A stretch of 27,766 nucleotides of DNA from Candidatus Odinarchaeota archaeon (GTDB taxonomy: Archaea > Asgardarchaeota > Odinarchaeia > Odinarchaeales > Odinarchaeaceae): the NCBI GenBank assembly GCA_038826135.1, contig JAWBON010000009.1:829-28594 (forward strand), written 5' to 3'. Shown here one piece after another: positions 22,301 to 25,440 of the stretch (its first letter is position 1; every line of letters begins with the position of its first letter). The notes under the pieces are model-generated. The model did no database searches. It saw only the letters and a list, made by a program, of their open reading frames with translations, and was not told the origin of the DNA. The position numbers and the translations under genes are program-made.

Positions 22301-23317
22301 ATGGAAAACCAGTGACTGAATCCTAGTAGACTTATCATACTAGTTTTAATAACAGCTGTTTCAGGGATTTTAATAGGTCATTTTCTCCCTTGGGTGTCTG
22401 CGTCTCTTTTAAACCTCCAATTTATGAACATCTCTATACCTATAGCTGTTTGTGTTATCGCTCTTTTAACCCCTCAGTTCATGTGCTGGAATATATGTAA
22501 AAAAGAATTTTTTAAAGCGGTTAAAAGACCGCTCCCTTTAATCATCATTATATTATCTAACTGGCTTATCTCACCTTTAACCGGTATTTTATCAGCCAGT
22601 ATTTTTTTAACCGCTAATCTCTCTTTTAAGTTAGGGGTTTCATTATTATTTTTAGGGCCATCGATATCCATGGTCATATATTGGAATAAGCTTGCAGGGG
22701 GTTCCCAAAACCTAGTTACGGCTGCTACTTTATTAAATTTAATTATCATAATCACGGTGTACCCTTTTGCAGCGTATATTTTAATCGGTCATATAGCTGT
22801 ATGGGTTCCTTTAGAAATTGTTTTCTTAACGATCTTAGTATTTTTTTTAACACCGCTTTTCCTAGGTCTATTATTAAGAATATGCTTTAAGATTAATGTT
22901 GTTAGCAGGAACACCGTCATTTCTGTTAACCGTGTTTCTGACAAAATATCCGTTACAGTTTTTTTCGCACTGATACTTATTTTATACATTGTTCAAAGTG
23001 AAAATATTATTCTTCACACGCTTGATTTCATAATTTTATCTGTGCCTATAATATTTGGTTATATGCTGGTTTACGCGATGGTGTCAGCGTTATGTTTTAT
23101 TGCCCGTATTAGTCAAGCTGAGAGTGCGACCGCTATCATAGTAGGTTCCGGTAATCAATATGAAATAGCTATAGCGGCTTCAACAATCATCTTTGGTGTG
23201 CAATCTGGTGTAACACTCGCGGTTAGCATCGGGCCTGTGCTCGAGGCGCCTCTTATGCTACTTTTAATAAGTATAATATTTAGATTATCCAGTTTGCGCT
23301 CCTCTAAAAAATTATAG
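22301..23317 (+). CDS. Acr3-like (BART/SBF fold) secondary transporter; in-frame TGA at codon 5, so possible pseudogene or internal start
   Basis: SNWLISP, GPSISMVIYWNKLAGG, GNQYEIAIAA and GPVLEAPLML match Acr3. The ORF-track start GTG 22394 omits an in-frame TM1 (LIILVLITAVSGILIGHFLP), which follows ATG GAA AAC CAG TGA. Confidence 0.75.
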
Positions 23318-23390
23318 AATTTAATATTTTTAAGAAAATTTTAAGGTAACCGTCCTTATTTTTGTTTAAGATTTTTTTGTAGGGTAGAGG

Positions 23391-23398
23391 TTTAAATT
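23391..23398 (+). promoter_or_regulatory. Probable TATA box of the ThrC-like/PadR gene (leaderless)
   Basis: TTTAAATT ends 22 nt before ATG 23421; no SD before that ATG. Confidence 0.45.
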
Positions 23399-23420
23399 TA
23401 CTTATCTAATTAATTTATTT

Positions 23421-24836
23421 ATGGTTTCTATGCGGTTTAAGTGCCCTAGATGTGGTAAGATTTACGTGGCGGAGCGGGTTCTCTCCCTTTGCGAGGGGTG
23501 TGCTTCCCCCCTTATTTATTTTTATGATTATTCTAAAATCAAGGATACGCTCTCCTTTTCAGATGAGAAGTCTTTTTGGAGGTTCTCATCTCTTCTCCCT
23601 CCTATTGAATCCAAGTTTAGAATCTCATTGGGTGAGGGTGTTACACCCATCTTCAGGTCCACTCGGATGGGTTCTATTATAGGATTGAATAACTTGTTTT
23701 TGAAGGATGAATCACGTAATCCTACAAACTCATTCAGGGATAGAGCTGCCAGTCTACTGATCTCACATGCTTTAAGTTTAAATTTCAGTGAGGTTCTATG
23801 CGCCTCTAATGGGAATCTAGGGGCAGCTATTTCCGCTTATTGCGCTAGGGCTGATATTAAGAGCACGATTGTCACGCCCAGTCTGGTTGATATCGGTAAA
23901 CTATCTCAAATGAAAATGTACGGTGCTAATATTGTTTATGAGGGTGAAACTATTGATGAAGCTATCCGTTTTGTCCTTGAAGACTGGAAGGATAAAAATA
24001 TGTATCAGGCAACGTCGGGGCTTAACCCGCTTATATTAGAGGCTCAGAAGACAATCGCGTATGAGATTATTGAGCAGGTGGGTGTGCCTGATTTTGTCAT
24101 TGTGCCTATGGGGGACGGTGGAACTATTTACTCTATTTGGAGAGGTTTCAGAGAATTCTATGATTTAGGTTTATCTTCTAAGCTGCCAAAGATGATTGGT
24201 GTGCAGTCCCTCACGTGCTCACCTATCGTTAAAGCTTTTGAAAAAAACTCTGATGTGACGCGTTTTCCCGGTGGAACAACTATTGCTTTAGCTATACTGG
24301 TTTTAGAGCCTTTAAACGGGTGGTTGGCTTTATCAGCTTTGAAGGAGTCTGAGGGTGTTGCCTTATCGGTTTCTGATAAAGAGATTTCTGACTCTCAAAG
24401 ACTGCTAGCATTAGAGGAGGGGATATACGCTGAGACAGCTAGTTGCGCGACATTGGCGGCTGTTAGGAGGCTGGCTACGGATGGTGTTATAGGAAGAGAT
24501 GATCTTGTTACGTGTATAATTACAGGAAGTGGGTTAAAGGACCAGTACTTGCTGGCGGCTTTAACTGGGTTATCTAGGAGAGTTAATTTAGCTGATAGAG
24601 TTAATTTGAAGCTTCGAATATTAAGGTTGATTTCGCTTGGAGAAACTTACGGTTACTCGCTCTGGAATTCTTTATCGAAATCAGTTACTTTACAAGCTAT
24701 ATATCAGCATCTTAATGAATTAGAGACTCGTGGGCTAATAGTTTCTACGGATAGGGATAATCGGAGATATTATTCTATAACTGGTAGGGGTCTTAAAGTG
24801 CTTAATGCTTTAGAGGAGCTTGCGTTTCTTCTTTAG
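23421..24836 (+). CDS. Threonine-synthase-fold (PLP fold type II) protein with Lys-to-Arg at the PLP site, fused to a C-terminal PadR-like winged helix
   Basis: Zn ribbon CPRC..CEGC, SLGEGVTP, LKDESRNPTNSFRDR, ASNGNLG, VPMGDGG, TGSGLKD. Residues ~394-471: ILRLI..GETYGY, IYQHLNELETRGLI, RRYYSITGRG. Confidence 0.88.
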   Translation: MVSMRFKCPRCGKIYVAERVLSLCEGCASPLIYFYDYSKIKDTLSFSDEKSFWRFSSLLPPIESKFRISLGEGVTPIFRSTRMGSIIGLNNLFLKDESRNPTNSFRDRAASLLISHALSLNFSEVLCASNGNLGAAISAYCARADIKSTIVTPSLVDIGKLSQMKMYGANIVYEGETIDEAIRFVLEDWKDKNMYQATSGLNPLILEAQKTIAYEIIEQVGVPDFVIVPMGDGGTIYSIWRGFREFYDLGLSSKLPKMIGVQSLTCSPIVKAFEKNSDVTRFPGGTTIALAILVLEPLNGWLALSALKESEGVALSVSDKEISDSQRLLALEEGIYAETASCATLAAVRRLATDGVIGRDDLVTCIITGSGLKDQYLLAALTGLSRRVNLADRVNLKLRILRLISLGETYGYSLWNSLSKSVTLQAIYQHLNELETRGLIVSTDRDNRRYYSITGRGLKVLNALEELAFLL

Positions 24837-24841
24837 AAATA

Positions 24842-24880
24842 TTTATATAAAAGTTAACTCTTGTATACAAGTAATTACTT
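24842..24880 (+). promoter_or_regulatory. TATA box plus three abutting palindromes (candidate operator) upstream of the ECF S-component gene
   Basis: TTTATATA 24842-24849; AGTTAACT 24852-24859; CTTGTATACAAG 24860-24871; AAGTAATTACTT 24869-24880. Confidence 0.65.
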
Positions 24881-24894
24881 TAATATGTGGTCCT

Positions 24895-25440
24895 ATGATA
24901 ACGCAGTCTATTAAGGCAAGGTTCCCCAACTATCCAGTATCAGTCCAAGCAGCGTTAATAGGTTTATTCGCAGCGTTAACCATAATATTAACAATAATCA
25001 TTCAGATACCTGTGCCCGCTACAGGCGGATACATTAACATAGGCGACGCCGCTGTGATGCTCGCAGGCTTGTTGTTCGGACCTGTTATTGGAGGCATAGC
25101 TGGCGGTTTAGGATCTGCACTAGCCGATATAATCACCGGCTACGCGTTTTACGCCCCGTGGACGCTGATAATCAAAGGGGTTGAAGGCTTTCTAGCCGGG
25201 TTTATCAGTAGAAGAGACCGTTTCACATACTTTGATATCATAGCTTGTTTTCTAGTAGCTGGACCATGGATGATAGCAGGGTATTTTATGGTTGAAACCT
25301 TACTGTTTAGTTCAGCTGCAGCTATAGTTGAACTCCCGCTGAATGCGGTTCAATTCAGTGTAGGCGGGGCGGTCGCTTTACCTGTATCCATAGCTGCTAG
25401 GAAAATTACGCCGCCGCTGAACGCTTTTAAAGGTAGATGA
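24895..25440 (+). CDS. ECF transporter substrate-binding (S) component, COG4720-like
   Basis: AALIGLFAAL (AxxxA), IPVPATGGYINIGD, LFGP..GGIAGGLGSALAD, APWTLIIKGVEG; about 6 TMs. ATG 24895 is preferred over TTG 24820, which overlaps the upstream gene and its promoter. Confidence 0.88.
   Translation: MITQSIKARFPNYPVSVQAALIGLFAALTIILTIIIQIPVPATGGYINIGDAAVMLAGLLFGPVIGGIAGGLGSALADIITGYAFYAPWTLIIKGVEGFLAGFISRRDRFTYFDIIACFLVAGPWMIAGYFMVETLLFSSAAAIVELPLNAVQFSVGGAVALPVSIAARKITPPLNAFKGR

Follow-up and report, generated by a model that had tools for sequence, protein, structure and literature searches.

The bacterial regulators most similar in kind to the system described here are those of the PdxR/MocR type, one-component proteins in which an N-terminal, GntR-like winged helix-turn-helix (wHTH) is joined to a fold-type-I, aminotransferase-like PLP domain. 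PdxR regulons comprise pdxST, pdxK, and the transporter gene pdxU (PMC5320631). In Archaea, the repressors MDR1, LrpA, and Phr recognise dyads that coincide with the TATA box or lie immediately 3' of it, and repressors so placed prevent the pre-initiation complex from assembling or the polymerase from being recruited. PadR-family operators, such as those of B. subtilis PadR and of LmrR, are of the ATGT-N8-ACAT type. Among transporters, the substrate of the S-component HmpT/PdxU2 has been identified as pyridoxamine (PMC4860826), and the PdxU/PdxU2 family has been listed under PF07155 (PMC9997740). How individual genes are regulated in Asgard archaea is, to our knowledge, almost unstudied. In the literature searched, no account was found of a regulator of the ThrC-fold/wHTH, ThrC/PadR, or fold-type-II PLP kind, of the dyad motif detailed below, or of any B6-responsive transcription factor in Archaea.

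In the window (i.e., the whole 27,766-nt stretch of Candidatus Odinarchaeota archaeon DNA that was analysed), a gene for a ThrC-like (PALP) protein with a C-terminal wHTH, hereafter the fusion, is followed by a solitary ECF S-component gene. Our main reading, to which we would assign a probability of roughly 0.66, is that the dimeric fusion represses this PdxU/HmpT-type B6 transporter gene via an operator reaching from the TATA box to about +13; the binder, the repression, the start site, and the ligand are each inferred. Fusion and dyad would thus represent a one-component regulator that senses through an enzyme fold and acts at a dyad operator overlapping the promoter, a proposal in which binding itself remains an inference. 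What is new is the operator anatomy, its conservation across two archaeal phyla, and its link to pdxST.

As with PdxR/MocR, the fusion combines a PLP-enzyme fold with a wHTH in a single component, the operators in both systems are built of repeated boxes, and the content of PdxR regulons is paralleled by that of the dyad-bearing genes, namely PdxU/HmpT-type ECF S-components and pdxS-pdxT. The two differ in that (i) the sensor fold of the fusion is of type II (ThrC/PALP) as opposed to type I, (ii) its wHTH is C-terminal and PadR/ArsR-like, so that the MocR architecture is not matched, (iii) its hosts are Archaea and not Bacteria, (iv) its operator is a strict 9-4-9 inverted repeat placed over TATA/BRE elements, whereas direct and inverted repeats often occur together in MocR motifs, and (v) the PLP lysine has been lost in most lineages of the fusion. 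Moreover, (vi) PdxR activates pdxST, whereas the position of the dyad suggests repression by the fusion. With MDR1, LrpA, and Phr, the locus shares a palindromic site between the TATA box and what is, here, an inferred start, from which occlusion of TBP/TFB or a block to RNA polymerase recruitment would be expected; it differs from them in protein family and motif, in having two tandem dimer sites 18 bp apart, and in the fusion of the left arm to the TATA box. With the PadR family, it shares a domain scoring above the Pfam PadR threshold and, as proposed here, a dimeric wHTH reading an inverted repeat. However, the half-site is AAGT with N4 between the cores and does not conform to ATGT-N8-ACAT, and the helix xAIYQHLxEL of the fusion resembles that of ArsR/HTH_5 proteins, unlike the PadR family. 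The closest solved relative of the S-component, L. brevis HmpT/PdxU2 (PDB 4HZU chain S), belongs to the same PF07155 family; that relationship is nonetheless distant, the Odin S-component is solitary with EcfT encoded elsewhere, and the archaeal substrate is only inferred.

The gap between the TAG stop codon of the fusion gene (24834-24836) and the in-frame ATG at 24895 spans 58 nt and, read directly, consists of AAATATTTATATAAAAGTTAACTCTTGTATACAAGTAATTACTTTAATATGTGGTCCT. A preliminary description of the locus had reported three abutting palindromes here (AGTTAACT, CTTGTATACAAG, and AAGTAATTACTT) with nothing comparable in other intergenic gaps, cautioning that AT-rich DNA inflates the number of chance palindromes. 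The palindromes and their positions held, all being perfect reverse-complement palindromes; their abutting held in part, as AAGTAATTACTT and CTTGTATACAAG in fact share 3 nt (AAG); and the array proved to be two tandem 9-4-9 dyads, as opposed to three separate palindromes. Two palindromes absent from that description, AAATATTT and TTTATATAAA, extend the unbroken palindrome cover to 44 nt (24837-24880). The claim that nothing comparable exists was also supported, this run being the longest in the 1,264,822-bp assembly (1.26 Mb, 38% GC), ahead of the next at 28 nt, in a ranking that took in 6,864 palindromes of at least 8 bp. As to the caveat, 20,000 dinucleotide-preserving shuffles of the 58-nt gap were run: at least one 12-bp palindrome arose in 5.2% of them and at least two in 0.085%, while a covered run of at least 44 nt arose in 0/20,000. 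By both the shuffles and the genome-wide ranking, the dyad symmetry is beyond chance. The central CTTGTATACAAG occurs once in the genome. Contigs from four hot-spring runs, compared over 24600-25100, carried only two differences (24761 and 24901), neither in the gap, a divergence too small to be informative.

The unit of the array is a 22-bp dyad, TATAyAAGT-N4-ACTTrTATA, composed of 9-nt arms and a 4-nt spacer and present in two tandem copies with centres 18 bp apart (Table 1). The central palindrome marks where the inner arms of the two dyads overlap by 4 nt, which accounts for its being the best conserved; its outer neighbours are perfect palindromes only because the spacers of this Odin lineage happen to be self-complementary and, since spacers differ between species, that perfection is specific to the lineage. 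Measured against the consensus TATAYARGT-N4-ACYTRTATA, both dyads score 16/18, a value that no other site in the genome exceeds. The left arm of dyad 1 overlaps the TATA box, as seen directly in the sequence and in the genus alignment, and dyad 2 covers the predicted transcription start. The latter, behind which there are no RNA data, follows from adding 26.5 nt to the centre of TTTATATA, a distance calibrated on the leaderless upstream gene; this places the start near 24872 and predicts a 23-nt leader. Relative to this inferred start, the dyads would begin in the TATA box, in its 3' half, at about -26 and reach about +13, a placement from which archaeal repressors are able to act. The Shine-Dalgarno (SD)-like motif of the predicted leader has GTGATCC, GGTGGT, GGTGAT, or GGTGC at its position in relatives, a conservation which, from sequence alone, suggests a leadered mRNA for the S-component gene. 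The upstream fusion gene, for its part, appears leaderless (window 23389-23420): GTTTAAATT is centred 26.5 nt before its ATG without an SD motif, an arrangement conserved in one of the other species of the genus (G001).

Table 1. Features of the fusion-to-S-component interval, in window positions.
Feature	Position	Strand	Remark
ThrC-like (PALP) + C-terminal wHTH fusion gene	23421-24836	+	Proposed trans-acting regulator; from Pfam domains
Purine-rich stretch AGAAATA	24835-24841	+	Directly 5' of TATA box; BRE-like, assignment as BRE inferred
Palindrome AAATATTT	24837-24844		
TATA box TTTATATA	24842-24849	+	Perfect palindrome; centre 24845.5, 49.5 nt before ATG
Palindrome TTTATATAAA	24842-24851		
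Dyad 1, TATAAAAGT-taac-TCTTGTATA	24846-24867	unstranded	Core AAGT-N4-TCTT at 24851-24862
Palindrome AGTTAACT	24852-24859		Perfect reverse-complement
Central palindrome CTTGTATACAAG	24860-24871	unstranded	Identical in 5/5 genus sequences
Dyad 2, TATACAAGT-aatt-ACTTTAATA	24864-24885	unstranded	Core AAGT-N4-ACTT at 24869-24880
Palindrome AAGTAATTACTT	24869-24880		Perfect reverse-complement
Predicted transcription start	24872 (about +/-2 nt)	+	TATA centre plus 26.5 nt
SD-like GTGGTCC	24887-24893	+	Within predicted leader
Solitary ECF S-component gene, PdxU/HmpT type	24895-25440	+	Proposed regulated target; PF07155

Within the genus, five sequences were compared (four genomes and one metagenome contig, at 74-92% protein identity). 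Invariant among them are TAGAAA at the BRE-like stretch, AAGT, CTTGTATACAAGTA, CTT, AATA, the GTG of the SD-like motif, and the start-codon context TATGA, and the TATA box is conserved as TTTATAT in four of the five and as TTTTTAT in the fifth. Two 4-nt blocks vary freely (taac/taag/ataa/taaa/ttat and aatt/ataa/atct), and these are the dyad spacers.

Across Asgard lineages, one to three dyads lie 5' of ECF S-component orthologues, spaced 16-26 bp apart, with AAGT-N4-ACTT or AGGT-N4-ACCT as the core. Single-copy dyads, namely TATATAAGTAATTACTTATATA in G016 and TATTCAAGTTTTAACTTGAATA in G009, confirm the unit, and in G008 two dyads are likewise 18 bp apart, recreating the same junction CTTGTATACAAG. 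Of the 27 fusion-bearing Asgard representative genomes, 20 carry a dyad at one of three places (S-component gene, fusion gene, or pdxS); of the genomes that encode an ECF S-component homologue without a fusion, 0/6 do. Within the regions examined, the remaining 7/27 had no clear dyad; fusion-bearing genomes lacking one in the regions read include G011, G021, G022, G017, G028, and G031, as does the adjacent ECF S-component gene of G040. Pattern counts over 41 genomes were not used, as TAYAAGTNNNNACTTRTA with at most one mismatch was as frequent as its reversed control; only exact or tandem TAYAAGTNNNNACTTRTA matches were kept from that search. In G025, two adjacent dyads with CGGT/ACCG cores, TATATAGGAATGTACCGATATA and TATATCGGTTATTACCGATATA, lie 5' of an ECF S-component homologue (L017:1841-1880) 30 kb from the fusion gene, and could be either a variant or a different operator.

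The fusion and S-component genes are linked in tandem in both Odin genera, convergently in Loki-type genomes, and divergently in several other Asgard families. Regardless of whether the fusion gene is tandem, convergent, divergent, or distant, the dyad remains at the ECF S-component promoter, being kept in G029 and G032 although the fusion gene is far away. Autoregulation is not indicated in Odin or Loki genomes, as the window (23250-23435), G001, and four Loki loci all lack a dyad 5' of the fusion gene; a dyad does precede the fusion gene in G012 and in divergent arrangements. In four Asgard genomes (G011, G022, G032, and G040; L056, L057, L058, and L060), the fusion gene lies divergently beside a GINS (Sld5-domain) gene, with no dyad between the two. 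In G008, the dyad-bearing S-component gene is directly followed by a gene for a 539-aa double ABC ATPase in which two ABC_tran domains are fused (L054:3076-5582), in contrast to the solitary S-component of the Odin window.

Outside Asgard archaea, all six contexts sampled (46-49% identity; three named Bathyarchaeia/Bathyarchaeota) show a PF07155 gene after the fusion gene and, between the two, a 9-4-9 dyad of the form TAGTAwAGT-N4-ACTwTACTA. This dyad is single copy, lies 21-43 nt before the start, and has arms matching at 7-9 of 9 positions. Conservation at orthologous promoters while spacer and flanking bases drift is thus seen in the genus alignment, the Asgard lineages, and the non-Asgard contexts. 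The preliminary description named, as what would refute it, a lack of conservation in relatives together with a failure of the fusion protein to bind; as to conservation, the dyad was found to be conserved and the perfect outer palindromes were not.

The fusion matches Pfam PALP over residues 68-369 (2.9e-69) and PadR (PF03551) over residues 400-461, the latter a marginal pass (E 4.6e-07; 30.2 bits where 27 are required). It therefore carries a PadR wHTH domain by that threshold; the domain also resembles ArsR-type wHTH proteins, with some fusion orthologues matching PF01022 as well, so that the earlier labelling of the protein as PadR held only in part, the wHTH being as much ArsR-like as PadR-like. 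At the position of the PLP lysine, the fusion has Arg (NPTNSFRDR), whereas the canonical ThrC of the same genome retains SFKDR. Across the family this position is Arg in Odin, Arg, Ile, Val, Leu, or Asn in most other lineages, and Lys in Loki-type orthologues; it is possible, given the latter, that a sensor-only reading does not hold family-wide. The recognition helix xA(I/V)YQHLxEL is near-invariant from Odin to the non-Asgard (Bathyarchaeia-type) proteins, its YQHL being invariant in 12 sequences from both groups, and a loose pattern of this helix is matched in the Odin genome of the window (G000) by the fusion and one ArsR-like protein only. Modelling of the fusion as a homodimer gave an ipSAE of 0.78 against 0.00 for the best control, with pLDDT of at least 84 and runs agreeing in at least 46% of contacts, a mark reached by 20/30 proteins solved as pairs and by 1/23 solved as single chains. 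The modelled interface lies within the ThrC domain (residues 50-373) and resembles that of solved ThrC dimers; the homodimer pass may therefore reflect that likeness.

We consider it likely that the dyads are the operator of the fusion, since the dyad is conserved while its spacers drift, tracks the presence of the fusion, and precedes pdxS-pdxT, and since the recognition helix is near-invariant. In the absence of binding data, however, this is inferred from co-occurrence and helix conservation; the earlier suggestion of an operator for the adjacent fusion regulator is to this extent supported, on comparative evidence. What is shown comprises the palindromes and their rarity, the conservation of the dyad, its link to ECF S-component genes and pdxST, and its co-occurrence with the fusion.

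The target gene product matches PF07155 at 1.3e-37 (129.8 bits against a cut-off of 26.7), and thus qualifies as PdxU/HmpT-type; its closest solved chain is 4HZU_S (E 9.3e-18). EcfT genes and a Phos_pyr_kin kinase are present elsewhere in the genome and in the genome, respectively. The B6 synthesis gene pdxS was not found in G000 (93% complete), in its three congeners (G001-G003, one of them a single contig at 98% completeness), or in G005 or G013; it is present in 10/41 Asgard genomes. In G012, the dyad is at the promoter of a fusion-pdxS-pdxT operon headed by the fusion, and in G040 it is found 5' of pdxS, between a TATA box and the ATG, with pdxT downstream. Of the pdxS genomes without a fusion, 0/5 have a dyad 5' of pdxS; G011 and G021 encode a fusion, yet show no dyad at pdxS. 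With dyads at both PF07155 S-component genes and pdxS-pdxT, the pattern is that of a regulon of B6 synthesis and uptake. That the S-component transports a B6 vitamer is inferred from context: its gene is linked to that of a PLP-fold regulator, has its dyad in common with pdxST, and occurs in genomes where pdxS was not found.

Within G000, the S-component promoter appears to be the sole target. Exact AAGT-N4-ACTT sites number nine, of which only dyad 2 is located at a promoter, the other eight lying within ORFs or at a 3' end. Scores of 16/18 occur only three times genome-wide: at dyads 1 and 2, and at C5:12636, where the core differs (ACGT). Neither the core-pattern search nor genome-wide consensus scoring returned any other promoter site, and hence no further regulon member in G000. 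The C5 site is a 22-bp palindrome within TATATATATACGTTATAACGTATATAC (C5:12632-12658; L076:1133-1159), outside the window, with 9-4-9 geometry like that of the B6 dyad; it is situated between a DUF4332/HHH gene on the minus strand and a metallo-beta-lactamase-fold gene, and might be the operator of a related wHTH.

In the mechanism we propose, the 58-nt gap would be the BRE/TATA promoter of the S-component gene, overlapped by the two tandem dyads. A ThrC-like/wHTH homodimer, held together by its threonine-synthase-like domains, would bind each dyad with one wHTH per arm, and two dimers on the DNA would block TBP/TFB or RNA polymerase such that the transporter gene is repressed. The ThrC-like domain, its PLP lysine lost here, would act as a B6-vitamer sensor that sets DNA affinity, with uptake being switched according to B6 supply. 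A broader reading, on which we find the evidence evenly poised, is that Asgard archaea and Bathyarchaeia share a B6 regulon in which a ThrC-derived PLP-fold sensor, mostly without the catalytic lysine, and a wHTH reading a 9-4-9 dyad (...AGT-N4-ACT...) on the core promoter are wired, according to lineage, to uptake or to pdxS-pdxT.

If true, the system would be a fold-type-II archaeal counterpart of bacterial PdxR, and among the first regulator-operator-regulon sets reconstructed for Asgard archaea. The finding also indicates that hundreds of genes annotated as "threonine synthase", the annotation borne by the fusion family (613 matches at E up to 1e-30), probably encode regulators; it suggests a dependence of Odinarchaeia on imported B6, and it supplies a motif with which the B6 regulons of uncultured archaea could be predicted. 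As the DNA target (40 bp) is defined, a candidate binder is named, and the candidate ligands are few, the hypothesis is directly testable.

The alternative that survives best, though we regard it as unlikely, is that the dyads are the operator of another transcription factor, either an ArsR-type wHTH or an unlinked regulator, with the fusion linked by metabolism only. In its favour, an identical 22-mer adjoins ArsR(HTH_5)-type genes in G033 and G008; G033 has neither a fusion nor an S-component match, so that the motif alone does not name its binder; and G000 itself has a pair of ArsR-like genes, the product of one carrying the helix SQPTTSHHLQML. Against it, orthologues of the ArsR-like protein flanked by the 22-mer (E below 1e-20) are confined to G033, G023, and G008; neither the Odin genus nor most of the genomes with a dyad at the ECF S-component gene gave a match at 1e-8, so that these proteins cannot serve the dyads elsewhere. 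The ArsR-like genes of G000 have no dyad upstream, and dyad presence follows the fusion, not ArsR. The stand-alone wHTH proteins of G033 and G008 are homologous to the wHTH of the fusion, with the helix QH in common (E 3e-09 for a Loki fusion); being flanked by the identical 22-mer, they therefore lend support to a wHTH clade that reads the dyad. The fusion thus remains our preferred binder. Two other candidates were rejected: an ArsR-type protein, on account of its distribution, and the stand-alone PadR paralogue of G000 (C26), whose recognition helix is different. The ArsR-type regulators of G033 (L051:2980-3490, L050:1130-1170) and G008 (L053:3380-3860) have a Cys-rich C-terminal tail, adjoin SAM-methyltransferase or membrane-protein genes, and have on their flanks TATATAAGT-N4-ACTTATATA dyads, single or in tandem, that agree exactly with the B6 operator consensus.

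A second alternative is that the palindromic, TATA-like arms are core-promoter elements, i.e., alternative or back-to-back TATA/BRE elements, and not a regulator site at all. The arms do read TATAyA and overlap the TATA box, the central TGTATACA lies about 29 nt before the ATG, and in divergent arrangements a single dyad is placed between both genes, about 25 nt before the fusion start (L009). However, AAGT/ACTT cores are absent from any general promoter, with one promoter site among the nine exact ones in the genome; the dyads form tandem arrays of two to three copies and are specific to ECF S-component and pdxS genes; and the non-Asgard (Bathyarchaeia-type) arms TAGTATAGT are not TATA-like, the 9-4-9 geometry being kept there 3' of a separate TATA box. 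We thus hold this explanation to be very improbable, without its being fully excluded, and retain the operator reading.

No better supported is the view that the palindromes act in RNA, as a 5'-UTR hairpin, a riboswitch-like element, or a terminator for the gene that precedes them. A start near 24872, or read-through from the upstream gene, would indeed place dyad 2 and some of dyad 1 in a transcript. The predicted RNA fold is, however, no better than that of shuffles (-7.4 kcal/mol, z = -0.33), Rfam gave no match at E up to 1, the stems would be of only 4 bp in a hot-spring organism, and the dyad overlaps the TATA box and, in other lineages, lies upstream of the TATA-to-start interval; a role in RNA therefore seems highly unlikely. 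Finally, chance in AT-rich intergenic DNA, for which the AT-richness of the gap and the 5.2% of shuffles with a single 12-bp palindrome could be cited, is all but excluded by the rarity of two 12-mers, the absence of any 44-nt run among shuffles, the genome-wide rank of that run, and above all by the conservation of the dyad across genus, class, and phylum.

Apart from the operator proposed for the fusion, G000 contains a different 22-bp perfect palindrome, TAGTAGGAAAATTTTCCTACTA, outside the window (C14:6915-6936; L075:916-937). It lies 3' of a TATA-like GGTTTAAATA and 5' of the ATG of another S-component gene, whose 193-aa product is a PF07155 paralogue (E 1.2e-07). Judged from sequence alone, it may point to a separate operator and regulator for another vitamin transporter.
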